Shown here: positions 1,600-17,964 of the stretch, in pieces
How positions within the stretch are numbered: position 1 is the first letter of the stretch
Layout: the number at the start of each line of letters is the position of its first letter
Source of the DNA: a virus
Length of the DNA: 49,846 bases
Reading direction: 5' to 3' (one strand)
Virus record (IMG/VR): IMGVR_UViG_3300045988_134547
Location: 1-49,846 of that record
Made by a program: the position numbers and the translations under genes
Notes under the pieces: model-generated
What the model was told of the DNA's origin: nothing
What the model saw: the letters and a program-made list of their open reading frames with translations, nothing else
Databases searched by the model: none

Positions 1600-1775
1600 A
1601 TGGCTGATTGCAAGGGTGTCCAGCTTTTGGACTCCCTTTAAAAGTCTCTAATGAGTGAGGCTAAGGGCAGTCGCAAGACTGGCCGTTCCCTAAGTAGCGG
1701 TCCGCCAACCCTTAGACCTTGCTCTCCATCTTGGCGGGTGGAAGTAAGGACAACAAACTTACTTAGGAGACTTAA

Positions 1776-11606: not shown

Positions 11607-11898
11607 TATTGACTATGACAAATTGTCCAGCATGGTGGCCGACAAACTCTCAAGTCAGATCGCCGAAAAGCTGATTCAGAAAACAACCAAGCTCACACTC
11701 TCTCGACCAGAAGTAGAGGTTAGGATCGGTTTTGCTCCTGGTTCTTCTGCCGCCCGTGAAATAATGAAGGATCCGAAGTTTCCTAAGCCCGATGCATTCT
11801 CCGAGAATGGGCGTGATCGTTGGTACACAAAAGACATTGATGACTATATGGAAAGCAAAAGACACGCCCGTGCCAAGCTCGCTATTTCAGCCGCTTAG
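11599..11898 (+). CDS. xis: Excisionase-like (AlpA/Xis-type) DNA-binding protein
   Basis: The segment LSRPEVEVRIGF...IMKDPKFPKPDAF..NGRDRWYTKDIDDYM fits the Xis/AlpA pattern. It converges on int and overlaps it by 17 nt. Confidence 0.6.
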   Translation: MNDIDYDKLSSMVADKLSSQIAEKLIQKTTKLTLSRPEVEVRIGFAPGSSAAREIMKDPKFPKPDAFSENGRDRWYTKDIDDYMESKRHARAKLAISAA

Positions 11899-12958
11899 CA
11901 ATTTCTTCTGCGCTCGCTCTGTAGTATCTCTGGAGCATCTTTAAATCTTTGTGCCCCGTTTGTCTTGCAAGCGCCAGGACATCTAAGCGGGGCGCCCCTG
12001 TTTCTGGATCAGGGCTGGCGGCCCAAGTCGCAAAAGTTGCGCGGCCGTCATGAAAATTCAGACCCTCTTTTATCAGTCGGTTTTGTGAATCGTACTCAGG
12101 ACCAAGACCGGCCCTATCCCTCACCTTTCGGAATAACGTGTCTCTGTTGTGATCGTTAAGTCCGCCAAAAATACGTGGTTCATACTCGAGATCCATAACT
12201 AAGTTAAGAATCTCCCGAGCTCGTTCAGATAACGCCACGTCTCTTCTTGACAATGTTTTTGTAGCCTCTGCCGGTACATGAAGCACATTGTCATCAATCC
12301 AAGAATATTCAATCTTTAAAAGTTCCCCGGCGCGCATTCCCGTTTGACAACTGAAAAGGAAAGCAGCCACGGCCAACTGCATTTTATTTTTAGGCACGGT
12401 GTGGCCGTCCCAGCCGCTAGCTTGGAGGAGTTTCTGTATATCCTCGTCTGAAGCAACCCGCTCACGGTGCTCAGGCTCCCGAGGTTTTTCTACACCTCTG
12501 CATGGATTCACGTCCGTGAGTTCGTTTTTAATGGCGTATTGAAAAACGTCGGAGAGAATTGTCAGTTCTCTATTAACCGTTGACGGCAGAATATTGGTGT
12601 CTCGGTGTAATGCCCGCTCATTGAGGCGGCGTTCAATATAGTTCTCTATCGTCCGTTTTGTGAAAGTTGATAGAGTTTTAGCCGCCAGCTTGTCTCTCTG
12701 GAGGCGTCTCAGTCGGATTTCTTCGGTGCGTCTGGAGCGTTTCTTAGCTGTAACCTCGTTAATGTATTCATCAATCAGCGCGGCCAGAGTAATTGATGAA
12801 GAGCGTTCTTCTGCGCTGATGTCCAACTCAGCCGCAAAGCGTTTTGCTTCAGCTCGAGTTTTAAATGTTTTTGAGAATCGCTGTTTGTTTCCGTCTGCTT
12901 GCAGTCGGTAGCCGTAAACCTCGTACGTGCCGCAAGACGTTTTTCTGATTGCCGTCAT
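11882..12958 (-). CDS. int: Tyrosine integrase
   Basis: The C-terminal catalytic region carries ...TGMRAGELLKI...HDGRATFATWAA...LARQTGHKDLKMLQRYY (the R..H-x-x-R..Y pattern). The start is set at the ATG with GAGG, because the upstream part of the listed ORF is made of attP arm repeats. Confidence 0.9.
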   Translation of the reverse strand: MTAIRKTSCGTYEVYGYRLQADGNKQRFSKTFKTRAEAKRFAAELDISAEERSSSITLAALIDEYINEVTAKKRSRRTEEIRLRRLQRDKLAAKTLSTFTKRTIENYIERRLNERALHRDTNILPSTVNRELTILSDVFQYAIKNELTDVNPCRGVEKPREPEHRERVASDEDIQKLLQASGWDGHTVPKNKMQLAVAAFLFSCQTGMRAGELLKIEYSWIDDNVLHVPAEATKTLSRRDVALSERAREILNLVMDLEYEPRIFGGLNDHNRDTLFRKVRDRAGLGPEYDSQNRLIKEGLNFHDGRATFATWAASPDPETGAPRLDVLALARQTGHKDLKMLQRYYRASAEEIAKRLK

Positions 12959-12972
12959 ATCCGCCTCGAAAA

Positions 12973-13208
12973 TTTCCGTTAGCGTTTCCGTTAAATTTCC
13001 GTTATCTAAACCCGAATATAACGAGATATGCCAAAACGGACAACAAAAAATCCCGCAAAACCGAGGCTTGACGGGATATGACAAGTATGTCTGGTGCCCG
13101 GGACTAGCACCACATTATCAATAATATTCAATCAGATAACTTTAACGGTTCCGTTAGATTTCCGTTATATGGATGTAAAACGGAAATTTTTGATGGTTTT
13201 AACGGAAA
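12973..13208. repeat. attP region: at least 8 copies of the TTTCCGTTA arm-type motif flanking a ~130-bp core
   Basis: Direct copies at 12973-81, 12985-93 and 12996-13004. On the other side there is the palindrome TAACGGttCCGTTA (13143-56), one more direct copy (13159-67) and inverted copies (13177-87, 13199-208). The region abuts the int start. Confidence 0.6.
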
Positions 13209-13243: not shown

Positions 13244-13414
13244 TTATTTGCGACAGCAGCACTTCTTCTCGTCAAAATATTTTCTCTCTGCTACTTCGCC
13301 CTGTTTTCCAATATTAAAACTATCTATCGGACGGTGATAGCCCATAACTCTTGTCCAGATTTCACACTTCGTTCTCTCGCTGTTTGGGATACCGAGTTTT
13401 TCAAGTTCAGTCAT
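13244..13414 (-). CDS. Stand-alone NrdD-type glycyl-radical-motif mini-protein (56 aa; below the ORF-track cutoff)
   Basis: Read by hand: MTELEKLGIPNSERTKCEIWTRVMGYHRPIDSFNIGKQGEVAERKYFDEKKCCCRK. It has an AAGGAG SD and an ATGA overlap with the Rz1 stop. RVMGY...FN.GKQ.EV..R matches the C-terminus of class III ribonucleotide reductase. Confidence 0.6.
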   Translation of the reverse strand: MTELEKLGIPNSERTKCEIWTRVMGYHRPIDSFNIGKQGEVAERKYFDEKKCCCRK

Positions 13415-13674
13415 TTTCCTTTCTCCTTATCTGAGTTGGATGGCGCATCTTTCAATGATTCTTCTATCGCTGACTGCGCGCGCTGCACATTCTGCAAGAG
13501 TTTTTGAAGAGAACTCAAGTGCGCGTCTAAATCGACCACACTCTCCAAGCTCCCTCTGTAGCTTTCGCTGTATCGCGGCGTCTCGCTCGCGCACCCTGAG
13601 AGCAGAATCGTTAAGGACACCAATAGACTTTTCCAACTGTGCAATTTCTTTATCCTTTCTATGTAACGTTTCAA
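13411..13674 (-). CDS. Rz1: o-spanin (Rz1-like lipoprotein), overlapping Rz in another frame
   Basis: Signal plus lipobox SLLVSLTILLSGC. It starts inside Rz and ends 16 nt beyond it. Confidence 0.75.
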   Translation of the reverse strand: MKRYIERIKKLHSWKSLLVSLTILLSGCASETPRYSESYRGSLESVVDLDAHLSSLQKLLQNVQRAQSAIEESLKDAPSNSDKEKGK

Positions 13675-13798
13675 TCTGCTGAGCCAGTAGCCGCTCCCGC
13701 TCCTGCGTCCAGCGCAACTCTGTTTCCTGCTGGCCGAAGTGATAACCCAGGAGACTGGAGAACATCACGGCGGCAATAATCAAAATTACTCGGATCAT
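13427..13798 (-). CDS. Rz: i-spanin (Rz-like)
   Basis: N-terminal TM (IRVILIIAAVMFSSLLGY) followed by a coiled coil; immediately downstream of the endolysin. Confidence 0.75.
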   Translation of the reverse strand: MIRVILIIAAVMFSSLLGYHFGQQETELRWTQERERLLAQQIETLHRKDKEIAQLEKSIGVLNDSALRVRERDAAIQRKLQRELGECGRFRRALEFSSKTLAECAARAVSDRRIIERCAIQLR

Positions 13799-14259: not shown

Positions 14260-14570
14260 TTAGGCTCCTTCTTGATACCGTGCAACCTCTGTACTTCAGA
14301 CTTCAAGGTCTCCAGGTCTTGCTGAATTTTCGTTAGCTGTTTGATGCTCTCGGTATTTGATGTCGCTCGGCGGTTAAGCTCGTTGATCTGAAGCCGCTGG
14401 AGCGCGGTTTCGTTCTCCAGACTGTTGATGCGGTCTTGCTGGGACACGATTGTGTACTGATTCAACTGAGCGTTGGTCAGGTAGCCAGCGATGTAAAACG
14501 CGAAAAATAGAATGAGCTTTATTAGCCCTGCAAAAACTGAGCGCATACTAATTGCCATGGTGCTCTCCAT
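14256..14570 (-). CDS. TM plus coiled-coil lysis-cassette protein (second i-spanin-like protein or holin modulator)
   Basis: N-terminal TM (VFAGLIKLILFFAFYIAGYL) followed by heptad-like QRLQINELNRR...LETLKSEVQRL. It lies between the holin and the endolysin. Confidence 0.5.
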   Translation of the reverse strand: MESTMAISMRSVFAGLIKLILFFAFYIAGYLTNAQLNQYTIVSQQDRINSLENETALQRLQINELNRRATSNTESIKQLTKIQQDLETLKSEVQRLHGIKKEPK

Positions 14571-14892
14571 TGTTGTTATGAACAGTGAGTTTCAATTTGC
14601 CCGTGATGACCCCGTATAAGGTGTTCATGATCTTCAGGCCAAAATATGCAGAAACCCCGCTACACGCTCCAATCCATTCCCAAGAGAGTTTGGAGGTGCG
14701 GAGGATCAGATAGACAATGAAGCCAGCGGCACATGAGGTAACAAACTCAATGAACCAGCGCGGAAAATTCCAGCCCCGTTCTCCTCTCACGTACGGCATA
14801 GCCGAGCCCGAGGCGGCGCAGATAAGAATAAGCGCGAACACTATTAGGTTCACCGTGCTGGCAAACTCGCTGAGGCTGAAATCTGTTTCCAT
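14548..14892 (-). CDS. Holin (three predicted TM segments)
   Basis: The hydrophobic segments are VNLIVFALILICAASGSAM, FIEFVTSCAAGFIVYLIL and WIGACSGVSAYFGLKIM. It is the first gene of the lysis cassette. The ATG at 14892 is preferred over the GTG at 14946. Confidence 0.65.
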   Translation of the reverse strand: METDFSLSEFASTVNLIVFALILICAASGSAMPYVRGERGWNFPRWFIEFVTSCAAGFIVYLILRTSKLSWEWIGACSGVSAYFGLKIMNTLYGVITGKLKLTVHNNNGEHHGN

Positions 14893-14951
14893 GTCTATCT
14901 CTCTTTTTAGATATGGTATGAGCGCTTTTTCTTTCAATGCGCACACCTGAC

Positions 14952-14975
14952 GAAAAGCCCCTCACATGGAGGGGC
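14952..14975 (-). terminator. Intrinsic terminator GCCCCTC-catgt-GAGGGGC-TTTT (minus strand)
   Basis: Same palindromic stem as the plus-strand terminators at 4555 and 9455. It separates the cassette array from the holin. Confidence 0.6.
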
Positions 14976-14982
14976 GGAGCGG

Positions 14983-15375
14983 TTAGGAGGTTTGGCCTCC
15001 GACTGCGGGGATGAAATATACGGTTGAGTTGTCTGTATTTCCGTCTAACACCGCGGCCACATATTTGCAACTATCCCCTTTTTTGACGGGCATGTATACA
15101 TCAGGCCATGCTAGGCGAACTTGTCCTGAAGTCAGTGCAACCTGTTGTCGTGAACGGGGACCGTTCCCTACCTCTATGTAACTAGTATTACTTGCTCCGT
15201 CGATGCAGACATATCCGGAACACGGCGCTGTATACGTACCATCAAGAGTTTCCTTGCCTTGTGCGATGACTATTCGATCAGCCCATTTTTTCGGCATTCC
15301 TTGTTGAGCAATGAACTCCGTGTCACTTCTCTTCACGAACTTGGAGAGGAGGAGCGCTAAAACTGATTTCAGCAT
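14983..15375 (-). CDS. Fibre-distal cassette protein, family member 1 of 6
   Basis: Contains MLKSVLALLLSKFVKRSD..., YTAPCSGYV, VKKGD and VYFIP. It shares the N-terminal helix and three motifs with the five upstream paralogues. Confidence 0.65.
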   Translation of the reverse strand: MLKSVLALLLSKFVKRSDTEFIAQQGMPKKWADRIVIAQGKETLDGTYTAPCSGYVCIDGASNTSYIEVGNGPRSRQQVALTSGQVRLAWPDVYMPVKKGDSCKYVAAVLDGNTDNSTVYFIPAVGGQTS

Positions 15376-16136
15376 GACGCACATCCAAACATCTGATCAA
15401 TTGTTCCCCTCGACTTTGTATATTCGAAGATAGGCAGTAGAGAACTGATTTGATCGCCCAATTGCGTAGGTAAGTTCTTGACCTTTTTTAGCGTAAGCCC
15501 AGATCGAAAGATTCCCATTCGCAGATGGTCCGAGATTGATGAGATTGAACCCTCCAATATCGGCAAACCAAACTCCATAACCTCTGAGGTTGACAACCCC
15601 CGTGTATGGCATGGTGAATGGGTGACTTTCTCCATCTGCAATAACAGGTAGTTCAGAAGAGCTTTGAATAGAAATTGCCGACTGCTCCGCCACCCACTCC
15701 CGCTTGTTCTGTAAGAATTTCTCCGCAAAGAGCTGCACAAGTTGCTTAAGCATATTGCACCTCCTTGCAGAAGAGCGTTCTTAAGAGCTGATACCCCCCC
15801 CCAGACCAAAGCATAGAACGTCGCAGAAGTATCTGCGGCAGTCTCAAAAATTATTTTTTTACCCTTAGCAATAGGAACAAAGAGTTTGGCTGCTCGTCCC
15901 TCACGAGGGTAGCTACTAGTCTGTAAAACCTGCCCATACACGTTGATACCGTTGTTTGTTACTGTTGTTATGAATTCCAAATATCCATCGTTGGGCGCAA
16001 CGTATTCGTTGCGGCCACCGGTTACAGATACGCTAGTGCTAACGCTTTTATCTGGTAAGGCCAAGGATGCAACTAAAGCGGATTCCTGTTTGCTGTAAAA
16101 CTTCGATAATAGGAGGCTCAATAAACTTTTCAGCAT
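15369..16136 (-). CDS. Fibre-distal cassette protein, member 3 of 6; as sequenced it reads through a 9-G tract into the +1 frame of member 2 (255-aa ORF)
   Basis: SD AGGAGG. The family-like part ends at ...ATFYALVWGG, at the tract. With 10 G it would end as WGGGISS-stop. Confidence 0.6.
   Translation of the reverse strand: MLKSLLSLLLSKFYSKQESALVASLALPDKSVSTSVSVTGGRNEYVAPNDGYLEFITTVTNNGINVYGQVLQTSSYPREGRAAKLFVPIAKGKKIIFETAADTSATFYALVWGGVSALKNALLQGGAICLSNLCSSLRRNSYRTSGSGWRSSRQFLFKALLNYLLLQMEKVTHSPCHTRGLSTSEVMEFGLPILEGSISSISDHLRMGIFRSGLTLKKVKNLPTQLGDQISSLLPIFEYTKSRGTIDQMFGCASC
15397..15753 (-). CDS. Fibre-distal cassette protein, family member 2 of 6
   Basis: Strong SD AAGGAGGTG. Its N-terminus MLKQLVQLFAEKFLQNKREWVAEQSA is closest to member 4. 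The gene is entirely overlapped by a stop-free +1 frame. Confidence 0.7.
   Translation of the reverse strand: MLKQLVQLFAEKFLQNKREWVAEQSAISIQSSSELPVIADGESHPFTMPYTGVVNLRGYGVWFADIGGFNLINLGPSANGNLSIWAYAKKGQELTYAIGRSNQFSTAYLRIYKVEGNN
15794..15802 (-). repeat. Poly-G tract (9 G on the coding strand) at the 3' end of cassette 3
   Basis: CCCCCCCCC on the plus strand. Confidence 0.95.
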
Positions 16137-16157
16137 AATGCGCCTCCTGTCAAAGGA

Positions 16158-16529
16158 TTAAAAGTCTGAACTTGCTTTGTAGAACCAAAGAGAATAATCG
16201 GTTGTACTTCCGCCACGGCACAAGAACTTAATCTGTGTCCCTTTTTTAACGTAACAACAGATTCCAGCTCCCGCAGTGTTTCCGTTAAGTATGGAAGCAA
16301 GTGCCATCTGCCCGTTCTCGACTTGGATTTCAAGAGCTGAGACTGTAGTTGAATTGCACCGAGAAGTCGCCCAGCCGTTGCACGGTGCGGTGTAGGTAAA
16401 GAAATCCGTGGTGCTTGTGCAAGGAATATTAATGCCCTGATGGATAATAGGAGCTGATTGTTCTGAAACCCAAGATTTTTTGCTCTTAAGAAAACTTTCG
16501 GCAAATAGTTGAACGAGGGCCTTAAGCAT
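16158..16529 (-). CDS. Fibre-distal cassette protein, family member 4 of 6
   Basis: SD GGAGGG. Contains MLKALVQLFAESFLKSKKSWVSEQSA, YTAPCNGW, VKKGT and WFYKA. The gene is entirely overlapped by the stop-free +1 frame 16130-16591. Confidence 0.7.
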   Translation of the reverse strand: MLKALVQLFAESFLKSKKSWVSEQSAPIIHQGINIPCTSTTDFFTYTAPCNGWATSRCNSTTVSALEIQVENGQMALASILNGNTAGAGICCYVKKGTQIKFLCRGGSTTDYSLWFYKASSDF

Positions 16530-16553
16530 GGCAGAGCCCTCCGAACAAGAATA

Positions 16554-16907
16554 TTATCCCCCCCCGAATGATTTGTAGAATTTAACCTCAATATCAGTCA
16601 AGTTATAAAGAGATATAGAGACGGTCTCTCCTTTGCTCACGGGAGCGGTCACGGCTTGACCCCAATCTTTAACAGATTGGAAAGTTCTTAGAAAATAATT
16701 CTCTCCGTTGCTGCTAATTCCAATAGCACTGCCGCCATTTGCTTCAGATTTGCCCTCTACAGTTATGAACCCGTCTTCGGGCGCAGTGTATATCTGTTCC
16801 CCTGTGAAGATACTTGTAGAGGAAGACGTGTTGCGCAAAGCGGAATGCGCCGCCTCGCTCGGAGTAGTTCGGCTATCGAGTAGCCGCTGAATAAGTTGTT
16901 TTAGCAT
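16554..16907 (-). CDS. Fibre-distal cassette protein, family member 5 of 6; ends in an 8-G tract (…KSFGGG-stop)
   Basis: SD AAGGAG. Contains MLKQLIQRLL..., YTAPEDGF, VSKGE and KFYKSF. Confidence 0.7.
   Translation of the reverse strand: MLKQLIQRLLDSRTTPSEAAHSALRNTSSSTSIFTGEQIYTAPEDGFITVEGKSEANGGSAIGISSNGENYFLRTFQSVKDWGQAVTAPVSKGETVSISLYNLTDIEVKFYKSFGGG
16558..16565 (-). repeat. Poly-G tract (8 G on the coding strand) at the 3' end of cassette 5
   Basis: CCCCCCCC on the plus strand, directly before the TAA stop. Confidence 0.95.
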
Positions 16908-16942
16908 TTAAACTCCTTGCCGAGCCTAAATGCTCGGCGTTA

Positions 16943-17357
16943 TTAGATTGGGCAGAAATAGCAATAAACCATTCCGGCACTCATGCCATAGTGGTATTCA
17001 ACTTGCTGTCCTTTTCTGATGTACATGTATGCTCCAAGATTGGAGCCGGGTTGTTGAAGTCTTGTTAGGGTCGGCCATTTATTTTGGGCTTTATTGCGGA
17101 TACCAACAAATATCGCTTGCGTTGCGTAAATCCAAGCAACCCCATCCGCTGGAGCCACATAAATAAAAGAGTCTGTGATAAAAGCGTCTGTGTCCGTAGC
17201 TGTATGGACCAAGATATTTCCTGAAATGAAATCAGAAATGCCTATCTCTGACGACCTTTTCCCATATATAGTTAAACTACCCCCCCCCACAGCCGCCGCT
17301 CACTGATCTGCGAGGAACGAATAAGCTACACAACAGACTTGCTAATTGTTTAAACAT
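16943..17357 (-). CDS. Fibre-distal cassette protein, member 6 of 6; interrupted by a 9-G tract after codon ~26 (frame-OFF as sequenced)
   Basis: The ATG at 17357 has an AGGAGG SD and gives the family-type N-terminus MFKQLASLLCSLFVPRRSVSGGCGGG-stop. The rest of the protein (GSLTIYGK...YVAPADGV...IRKGQ...) continues in the frame reached with 8 or 11 G. Confidence 0.6.
17280..17288 (-). repeat. Poly-G tract (9 G on the coding strand) near the 5' end of cassette 6
   Basis: CCCCCCCCC on the plus strand. Confidence 0.95.
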
Positions 17358-17964
17358 TGAAAAAACCTCCTTGTCTCATAGAGTTGCGGGCATCAACTGC
17401 CTGCTCCAATTCGTAGGCCAAAGCTTCCGGAAATGCCGGATAGTCGATAAAAGGAAAGCTAGGCTTGTCCGGAAGATCTTTAAGTGCTTGGCGATAATTC
17501 AATAACGCCTGTCGATCTTCTTCAGTTAATTGAGCTCTCTTCGCCTTGGCGGCTGACTGCACAGTAATGTCCGGGAGCTGAACATACTTATCAGTGTCAG
17601 AGATTCGAGCATTGCGCTCTCCTCTAACTTCTTGTTCGTAACGCTCTTGGACAAATTTGTCATCCAGTTCAGGAAGTTCTGTTGAAAGGTAGTAATTACC
17701 GTCAGCACTGTGGAAATAGCCTTGAGGACTGGGCTCAAGCTTCCAATATTTGATGATTACTCCATCATCTCGCTTAAATCTTTCGGATAGCTTGTAATGG
17801 CTCTCTGCGTACGCCTCATCTTTGGGATCTGTAAACGCGTGCTGACTCGGTGCATTGGAGGAAACAACAATTCTTCCGTCCGCGTCCTTCAATGAATATT
17901 TTGCAAGAGGCCGACCCATAGCCTTGGCCAACATCTCTTGCCGGACTTCTTCAAGTGTTTTCAT
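17350..17964 (-). CDS. Tail fibre assembly chaperone (Tfa-like)
   Basis: The C-terminal part ...ARISDTDKYVQLPDITV...EEDRQALLNYRQALKDLPDKPSFPFIDYPAFPE is the typical Tfa pattern. It follows the fibre genes. Confidence 0.8.
   Translation of the reverse strand: MKTLEEVRQEMLAKAMGRPLAKYSLKDADGRIVVSSNAPSQHAFTDPKDEAYAESHYKLSERFKRDDGVIIKYWKLEPSPQGYFHSADGNYYLSTELPELDDKFVQERYEQEVRGERNARISDTDKYVQLPDITVQSAAKAKRAQLTEEDRQALLNYRQALKDLPDKPSFPFIDYPAFPEALAYELEQAVDARNSMRQGGFFNV

Follow-up and report, generated by a model that had tools for sequence, protein, structure and literature searches.

Hypermutable poly-G runs in a paralogous gene array of a Parasutterella prophage: a putative translational selector of alternative fibre-tip modules

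Host-range switching between several alternative receptor-binding ends is known from the G segment of phage Mu with its invertase Gin, from Cin of phage P1, from shufflons and from diversity-generating retroelements (DGRs) such as the one acting on Mtd of Bordetella phage BPP-1. Separately encoded fibre-tip adhesins or retained Tfa proteins are represented by gp38 of T2-type phages and by Tfa of Mu and P2, while the trp operon and the structure-locked replicase start behind the coat gene of MS2 are classical cases of translational coupling. In Campylobacter phages, poly-G variation reportedly affects receptor recognition. Hypermutable poly-G tracts have been described from these phages (Sorensen et al. 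2021, Cell Rep 35:109214, cited in PMC10877375). For phages T2 and T4, a preprint (Gomez, Barrick & Waters 2025, PMC12633550) reports contingency loci, and it finds simple-sequence repeats under-represented in coliphage tail-fibre genes. The present analysis concerns a stretch of viral DNA of 49,846 nucleotides (nt), the entire IMG/VR record IMGVR_UViG_3300045988_134547 (hereafter the window, to whose positions all coordinates refer), in which six paralogous genes on the minus strand, g6 to g1 in 5' to 3' order, are flanked by a Tfa gene and a holin gene. This array carries poly-G runs whose lengths differ between otherwise identical genomes, and the points at which the three reading frames behind the runs terminate follow a grammar that is conserved across loci. 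On balance, it probably represents a phase-variable set of alternative fibre-tip binding modules, which would be selected through poly-G slippage together with translational coupling.

With the contingency loci of Campylobacter phages, T2 and T4, the array shares homopolymer slippage in phage genes and, presumably, the heritable and reversible diversity among the progeny that comes with it. Those loci, however, are single ON/OFF frameshifts in individual genes, whereas the runs described here recur periodically in a tandem array of paralogues and are combined with three conserved termination points over downstream starts and with a selected stop-free path. Mu and P1 inversion and DGRs resemble it in offering several alternative receptor-binding ends, here putative ones, beside a Tfa-type gene and in their stochastic switching. 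In contrast to these systems, neither invertase nor inverted repeats nor reverse transcriptase is located near the array, the choice would be made by frame and translation instead of DNA rearrangement or mutagenic retrohoming, and the heads are separate small proteins and not C-terminal fibre exons. As in classical coupling, stops lie 4-5 nt from a downstream AUG and, at starts of the ATGCTGA class, Shine-Dalgarno (SD) sequence and AUG are enclosed in a predicted hairpin; what differs from trp and MS2 is that the terminating frame is set by a mutable homopolymer, and no description of such a frame choosing the start was found in the literature searched. Like gp38 and Tfa, which bind the fibre tip and set receptor choice, the array products are small proteins encoded just after fibre and Tfa genes. 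Unlike gp38, to which they have no sequence or clear fold relation, they come as three to nine paralogues per phage with an N-terminal helix of 12 residues. An earlier reading of the window from its letters (the original prediction) had known of no described system with this layout, and the literature searched likewise gave no prior description of periodic runs in a paralogue array, of triple termination points over starts or of a conduit gene.

Poly-G runs and the three-frame grammar

G or C homopolymers of at least six nucleotides occur only three times in the window, and all three are situated in the array with the G on the coding strand (runs A, B and C; Table 1). Over the 40 array-bearing loci among 41 related loci collected, runs of at least seven number 103 in 94.9 kb of array sequence vs 4 in 249.9 kb of flanks, corresponding to an approximately 68-fold enrichment. 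Comparison of run lengths between consensus assemblies revealed that the runs are hypermutable. Loci L033 and L034, without a mismatch over 2272 nt, differ at run A (G9 vs G11) and at run C (G10 vs G7); L029 and L030 have 0 mismatches over 3372 nt and a single run indel, located in run B; and the window is separated from L005 by one mismatch over 2520 nt plus one indel, again in run B. Among near-identical loci, run C varies from G7 to G10, while the range extends from G7 to G11 across otherwise identical phages and from G6 to G11 over all loci, G9 being the modal length (36 of 54 A-type runs). A homopolymer of at least about seven in or at the end of a reading frame, length polymorphism and an altered product, as typical of slipped-strand contingency loci, are all found here.

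Homopolymers are error-prone and the data are consensus assemblies, so frameshifts and run differences might in principle reflect sequencing or assembly errors, or the decay of pseudogenes. Yet the runs occupy the same positions in dozens of diverged loci from independent studies, their lengths span G6-G11, and selection on all three downstream frames (see below) is not producible by errors or decay. The probability of this explanation is close to negligible.

Arrays consist of three to nine genes in a fixed order, comprising a first gene (F) with a run after the helix codons, repeated A-B units, in which the A gene carries a run at its 3' end, and a terminal gene (T); B and T genes are devoid of runs. 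Of the frames behind the F run, one encodes the complete protein, and both others meet a stop within 0-12 codons at all loci. Behind an A run, the frames end at three defined points, referred to as settings (i) to (iii). In setting (i), a stop is reached 27-42 nt upstream of the B ATG; in setting (ii), a TAA is met at +5 of the B ATG (ATGCTTAA); and in setting (iii), the whole B gene is read in its +1 frame until a stop at +4 of the ATG of the next A or T gene, with the sequence ATGCTGA, ATGCTAA or ATGTTAA. All three stop points are present in 40 of 45 distinct 3' run contexts, three of the five exceptions being scoring artefacts, and the stop/start overlap at +5 or +4 is found in about 43 of the 45. 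Codon 2 of the downstream genes is built correspondingly. It is CTT in B and F genes, which yields TAA at +5 and leaves the +1 frame open, and CTG, CTA or TTA in A and T genes, which yields the stop at +4; the partition between the two groups is complete. A frameshift fusion of A to B in the frame of B itself was considered and excluded, because a stop precedes B in that frame. Separately, the 244-amino-acid (aa) protein P0192 was noted as a natural in-frame fusion, in which GGG and a +1-frame stretch of about 35 residues follow an A-type head, before the sequence returns to the B frame with a second complete head; its tandem-domain layout resembles the C-terminus of protein P0287 discussed below.

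In the window, g6 comprises 26 codons and then a TAG directly after the G9 of run A, with the remainder in another frame. G8 at this position gives intact g6 of 138 aa, as found in other samples (P0004, 99% identical); run A is ON at G8 or G11 and OFF at the G9 of the window. At run B, G8 leads to a stop at 16554-16556, G9 to the TAA at 16522-16524 (+5 of the g4 ATG), and G7 or G10 to read-through of g4 as far as the TGA at 16130-16132 (+4 of the g3 ATG). At run C, the short form results from G10, the stop at the TAA 15746-15748 (+5 of the g2 ATG) from G8, and a product across g2 in the +1 frame of g2, ending at the TGA 15369-15371 (+4 of the g1 ATG), from G9. The window itself has g6 OFF, g5 short and g3 reading through to the g1 start. 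Depending on the run state, product lengths are 26 (OFF) or 138 aa (ON) for g6, 118, 129 or 255 aa for g3, and 117, 128 or about 258-262 aa for g5.

All states are represented in public contigs, counted with protein-collection sequences of at least 90% identity. For the g3 type, about 22 contigs are short, about 56 medium and about 20 long; the g5 type is short in 8, medium in 24 and long in 13 contigs; and for the g6 type 2 ON contigs are accompanied by 17 OFF fragments. As an additional observation, the Logan contigs L006 and L008 both have a poly-G run as their very first sequence (position 1), which is consistent with breaks in the assembly graph caused by mixed run lengths within a sample.

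A stop-free frame, start-site hairpins and a possible relay

The +1 frame is without any stop in 35 of 37 distinct B genes, although their median nucleotide identity is as low as 55%. Synonymous recodings of B genes, by comparison, were stop-free in this frame in 106 of 7400 cases (1.4%) and contained 3.7 stops on average, and a stop-free +1 frame was seen in none of 36 A genes, 12 F genes and 80 background chunks. An overprinted protein domain was considered and rejected. Between B orthologues, peptide identity amounts to 0.61 in the +1 frame vs 0.63 in the stop-ridden +2 frame and 0.83 in the B frame, and third codon positions of B genes vary as in ordinary genes. Since the +1 peptide is unconserved, openness and not a protein is under selection; judged from these sequence comparisons, no folded domain is maintained but ribosome passage, or simply a frame without termination.

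Minimum-free-energy (MFE) folds predict a start-site hairpin for the array genes, with the SD on its 5' side, the AUG in the loop and an anti-SD in the 3' arm. In genes of the ATGCTGA class, the anti-SD arm (CTCCTC, GCCTCC) is encoded in codons 7-10 of the N-terminal helix. Predicted accessibility was controlled by synonymous recoding, a codon shuffle being uninformative since it retained the anti-SD codons. SD and AUG of ATGCTGA-class starts are unpaired with a probability of 0.17 vs 0.30 in the recodings, and 16 of the 31 starts fall into the lowest 5%. Significant sequestration is confined to this class, which comprises exactly the genes at which read-through ends. In the 9-bp helix of T genes, 99.3% of the alignment cells over 17 sequences are paired, and one compensatory change from GC to UA is present. 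The sole unpaired cell stems from the window, where the SD of g1 (15382-15386) reads GGATG vs GGAGG in all relatives, a change that weakens both the SD and the start hairpin; the notion of a terminal gene without SD was rejected, as it holds for the window only. Between the g6 stop and g5, a small hairpin, kept in the MFE folds of first-A junctions from several loci, competes with a longer predicted pairing of AGCATTTAGGCTC with GAGTTTAAATGCT that would sequester SD and AUG of g5. In addition, the N-terminal ATG-CTN-AAR supplies stop codons to the upstream frames. Because the start region holds upstream-frame stops as well as the anti-SD, the N-terminal conservation, which had been ascribed to a docking helix with exchangeable heads, is at least partly RNA-level, while the helix and a variable beta-sandwich head are indeed found in the protein models.

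A mechanism can be outlined in which a G gained or lost at a hypermutable run during replication would move the termination point. The run of the first gene would serve as a plain ON/OFF switch in a Gly linker. In setting (i), the ribosome would stop before B is reached and the relay would end there. In setting (ii), a stop located only 5 nt into B would suit termination-reinitiation, by which ribosomes would be delivered to B. In setting (iii), ribosomes would pass over B, probably disturbing initiation there, and their release at the ATGCTGA stop, only 4 nt inside the following A or T gene, would open the hairpin that otherwise locks ribosome-binding site and AUG; B would therefore be bypassed and the next unit unlocked. 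With all runs at G9, translation would be relayed down to the terminal gene, and the array would act as a one-of-several selector. By reading of the per-locus tables, G9 stands most frequently for setting (iii); on that condition, ribosomes would by default be led to the terminal gene, whose g1 type is the most represented one among the listed homologues (64 of 120 best matches). In this specific form, slippage would steer terminating ribosomes to one of several stop-start sites, the neighbour gene would be kept open as a conduit, and one of up to nine heads per genome would be chosen without recombinase or reverse transcriptase. The relay is put forward as a tentative proposal, possible but somewhat doubtful in its full extent. 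If confirmed, it would be a new type of switch and, after DNA inversion and DGRs, a third phage route to host-recognition diversity that is cheap and enzyme-free; it would also provide a natural example of a frame maintained only for ribosome transit, which bears on the reading of 'non-coding' open frames.

Several findings weigh against the relay. It offers no clear difference in outcome between settings (i) and (ii), and it does not explain why the first gene is OFF in most assembled contigs. Whole-junction RNA folds are no better than shuffles (z of -0.08 to -1.1), and the SD helix of T genes is nearly invariant, so that support by covariation is thin. Moreover, starts of B and F genes exhibit no excess of structure over synonymous recodings (0.37 vs 0.35), and each array gene has a good SD of its own, which makes independent initiation possible. 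The last two points, together with a +1 peptide that lacks conservation and, as out-of-frame sequence does, abounds in L, S and R, would suit runs that are real contingency tracts acting on their own protein only, the first gene being ON or OFF and A genes receiving a native, medium or long tail, with no downstream coupling. A medium or long junk tail at the C-terminus would then inactivate or destabilise the A protein. What such an action leaves unexplained, however, is the openness of the +1 frame over about 120-135 codons in nearly all B genes, given that an early stop would equally ruin the C-terminus, the exact endings at +4 and +5 and the restriction of the hairpin lock to genes where read-through ends. 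Hence, we regard it as unlikely.

The runs could also act mainly at the RNA level, by transcriptional slippage or ribosomal frameshifting, in which case one genome would make three products per A gene in fixed ratios, similar to the G/GT frameshifting of tail chaperones, and would not switch heritably. Eight to ten identical bases permit perfect re-pairing in all frames, selection shapes all three frames and G9 is strongly modal, as would be expected from such a mode. Run lengths nevertheless differ at the DNA level between otherwise identical genomes, and no stimulatory structure stands out downstream of the runs; RNA-level action as the main mode is thus quite improbable, even though it and a heritable switch are not mutually exclusive.

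Gene family, fold and tail-fibre setting

The six products share 23-31% identity, with M1, K3, P51, G54, K99 and G100 invariant in a six-way alignment, and because a family hidden Markov model (HMM) matches every copy (63-179 bits), their similarity is far beyond chance. Alignment, HMM and gene coordinates (Table 1) bear out the original prediction of six diverged paralogues between Tfa and holin, and the view that they are old copies under selection is supported as well. The proposed size of about 115-130 aa does not apply to g6, which is cut after 26 codons, and to g3 with its open reading frame (ORF) of 255 aa (15369-16136). The motifs (Y/F)(T/V)AP..G and KG hold, g2 fitting loosely (FTMPYTGV), and the N-terminal pattern M(L/F)K.L..L(L/F)...F is approximate, as position 5 is V in g1 and the final F is absent from g5. 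It was also rightly stated that neither invertase nor reverse transcriptase occurs in the neighbourhood of the array, and the prophage integrase (11882-13084) is the sole recombinase of the window, but the variation device that is present, namely the poly-G runs, had been overlooked.

Table 1 Features of the array and its surroundings in the window
Feature	Position	Strand	Remarks
Tfa gene	17350-17964	-	phrog_4912 at E 6e-33; PF16778
Tfa TAA stop	17350-17352	-	at +5 of g6 ATG (ATGTTTAA)
g6, first-position F gene	ATG 17357; 5' part 17277-17357	-	helix codons, G9 run, immediate TAG; phase-OFF
Poly-G run A, G9	17280-17288	-	in g6 just after helix; encodes Gly linker between helix and head
g6 3' part, beta-sandwich head	16943-17290	-	out of frame with own start in window; HMM positions 29-122, 63 bits
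Small hairpin CCGAGC-ATTTAG-GCTCGG	16920-16937	-	predicted by MFE folding; between g6 stop and g5
g5, A-type	16554-16907	-	start ATGCTAAAA; short state in window (...SFGGG-stop)
Poly-G run B, G8	16558-16565	-	last codons of g5; three-state switch
ORF containing g4 +1 path	16130-16591	-	ORF list
+1-frame path over g4	16130-16557	-	stop-free; continuous with g5 only at a run B length of G7 or G10; ends in g3 ATGCTGA
g4, B-type	16158-16529	-	start ATGCTTAAG; +1 frame stop-free over whole length
Hairpin over g3 start	16112-16147	-	predicted; GGAGGC (16142-16147) pairs with GCCTCC (16112-16117), AUG in loop
g3, A-type	ATG 16136; homologous part up to run 15803-16136	-	start ATGCTGAAA; alignment, family HMM
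Poly-G run C, G9	15794-15802	-	end of g3 homologous part; long state in window
+1-frame path over g2	15369-15793	-	stop-free; tail of 255-aa g3 product in window
g2, B-type	15397-15753	-	start ATGCTTAAG; ORF and family HMM
Hairpin over g1 start	15348-15386	-	predicted; SD arm 15377-15386, anti-SD arm 15348-15357
g1, terminal T gene	14983-15375	-	start ATGCTGAAA; without run; ORF, homologues, AlphaFold2 model
Intrinsic terminator	14957-14975	-	GCCCCTC-loop-GAGGGGC plus T run; between g1 and holin
Holin	14548-14946	-	phrog_785

AlphaFold2 models of g1 (predicted local distance difference test, pLDDT, 86; predicted template modelling score, pTM, 0.76) and of the intact form of g6 (pLDDT 77) were compared. 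Instead of unrelated folds, both display one layout composed of a helix (residues 2-13), a disordered linker and an eight-strand beta-sandwich, and run A corresponds to the linker, residues 15-28, of the intact-g6 model. A kinship with C1q/TNF proteins, as suggested from the motif pattern, was not shown and membership in this family is not established. No family product has a Pfam match at E ≤ 1, C1q/TNF included, a search of PDB sequences with the family profile gave nothing below E 0.6, and C1q/TNF members appear far down the PDB fold lists (Cbln1 at rank 28 with a template modelling (TM) score of 0.30, GITRL at rank 38 with 0.37). Leading entries for both models are carbohydrate-binding modules of the CBM35/CBM6 type and the influenza haemagglutinin head, joined by cupins in the case of g1. 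The top BFVD match of the g1 model, a 120-aa 'Complement C1q-like protein' of an uncultured myovirus (E 8.5e-5, TM 0.45), is so by name only. The domain is similar to C1q/TNF heads in being a small beta-sandwich with an aromatic C-terminal strand, but it accommodates its eight strands in about 90 residues, unlike gC1q with about 130 or more.

At the C-terminus of the 685-aa protein P0287, the domain is present twice with its YTAPxNG, KG and FYYA motifs, and the N-terminal part of this protein looks fibre-like by reading of the sequence. The g1 model also resembles the terminal part of a 684-aa phage 'baseplate structural protein' (TMq 0.59), and a further match is the tail fibre of a Rhizobium phage. 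Profile matches in the giant proteins P0232 and P0292 were disregarded, being short partial matches in repeat proteins (PATR, Big_2). Because of the fibre transcription unit (see below), the tandem domain of P0287 and the fold matches to baseplate and fibre ends, a menu of alternative tip or adhesin modules, as originally envisaged, is the best functional reading, its receptor-binding part being an inferred role. As virion components, the products would most likely be binding modules carried by the tail-fibre tip or by the Tfa protein, and a lectin-like binding head docked via the N-terminal helix is plausible from the models and their CBM-type matches. Counting against such a function, no more than weak jelly-roll matches (TM 0.3-0.4) head the PDB fold lists, and P0287 has no Pfam or PHROG match.

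The array is located in the tail-fibre module, downstream of the genes for baseplate J, wedge protein and fibres. In all 14 distinct loci, the Tfa stop overlaps the start of the array at +5 of its first gene, and the C-terminal part of Tfa (residues 84-201) accompanies the array even in loci in which other genes stand in place of the 347-aa and 337-aa fibre genes. An intrinsic terminator lies directly 3' of the terminal gene in 14 distinct loci with that gene correctly identified, its stem showing a compensatory change in L022, and no promoter-like site above background was detected. From its position, the terminator appears to close a tail-fibre/array transcription unit ahead of the holin.

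The setting could, on the other hand, be that of phase-variable accessory or lysogenic-conversion factors outside the virion, which would act in superinfection exclusion, surface modification or lysis timing and use the N-terminal helix for membrane association. The helix is hydrophobic, the products match no family library, most assemblies come from lysogens, and the array is the last part of the late region, adjoining the lysis cassette and not far from where the prophage ends. A transcription unit common with fibre and Tfa genes, including the overlap of the Tfa stop with the first array start and the lack of any promoter-like site above background, argues against this assignment. So do the domain pair at the C-terminus of P0287, behind a part of fibre-like appearance, and the match of the g1 model to ends of phage baseplate and fibre proteins; furthermore, a helix of about 12 residues is too short for a membrane span, and no defence-system match was obtained. 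Factors of this type are distinctly unlikely, and binding modules of the virion are the preferred assignment.

Host, spread and further observations

As a prophage, the element represents a temperate Parasutterella myovirus with an E217/Pam3-type baseplate gene set; it is located beside prmC, prfA and hemA in a Parasutterella assembly and in two metagenome contigs. At E ≤ 0.01, 328 homologues without names were retrieved; named ones are from Parasutterella, e.g. HMPREF9439_01061 of P. excrementihominis YIT 11859. A profile search of 1.84 billion representatives gave 565 family members at E ≤ 0.001, many of them 245-277 aa long, i.e. of read-through length. The proteins of the window stand in nr as 'MAG TPA: hypothetical protein [Caudoviricetes sp.]'. 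Neither megablast of the region nor tblastn of g1 and Tfa detected a relative among GenBank phages, and a scan of genome contigs with the g1-family alignment gave no confirmed relative. Pfam, PHROGs, NCBIfam and PADLOC contain no family for any of the six products, and Rfam yielded no match inside the array.

For annotation, the runs have the consequence that gene callers split or fuse the array genes differently in each assembly (89, 115, 138, 117-135 or 255-278 aa), and every copy carries the label 'hypothetical'. In its host, a prevalent bacterium of the human gut, the element is common, with one member protein indexed in about 2000 collection blocks, and read-level metagenomic tests are therefore feasible.

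Homology blocks between the loci L002-L028 and the window (14900-17420) start and end at poly-G runs and gene starts, with borders at array-strand positions 856, 1619 and 2032-2035, and in protein P0033 a g1-type head is joined to a B-type N-terminus. From these block borders and the chimera, the conserved junctions appear to serve as crossover points for cassette shuffling.

Elsewhere in the window, a C4 antisense RNA was identified by Rfam (RF01695, 46 bits, slightly above the gathering score) at 1647-1730 (+). The ORF directly downstream of it (1776-2684, +) encodes a Rha-family phage regulatory protein (TIGR02681, E 1.5e-23), and the pair suggests a P1/P7-style antisense immunity element. 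By the integrase gene (minus strand), a 56-aa ORF at 13244-13414 (-) corresponds to the C-terminal end of the anaerobic ribonucleotide reductase NrdD (PF13597) with a glycyl-radical-like RVMGY motif; it would either restore the 3' end of nrdD, in which case the attachment site would lie within that gene, or act on its own as a 'spare part'. Finally, the endolysin gene is followed by a spanin-like embedded pair at 13411-13798 (-), in which an 87-aa ORF (13411-13674, -) with a lipobox-like LLSGC is contained in another frame of a 123-aa ORF (13427-13798).

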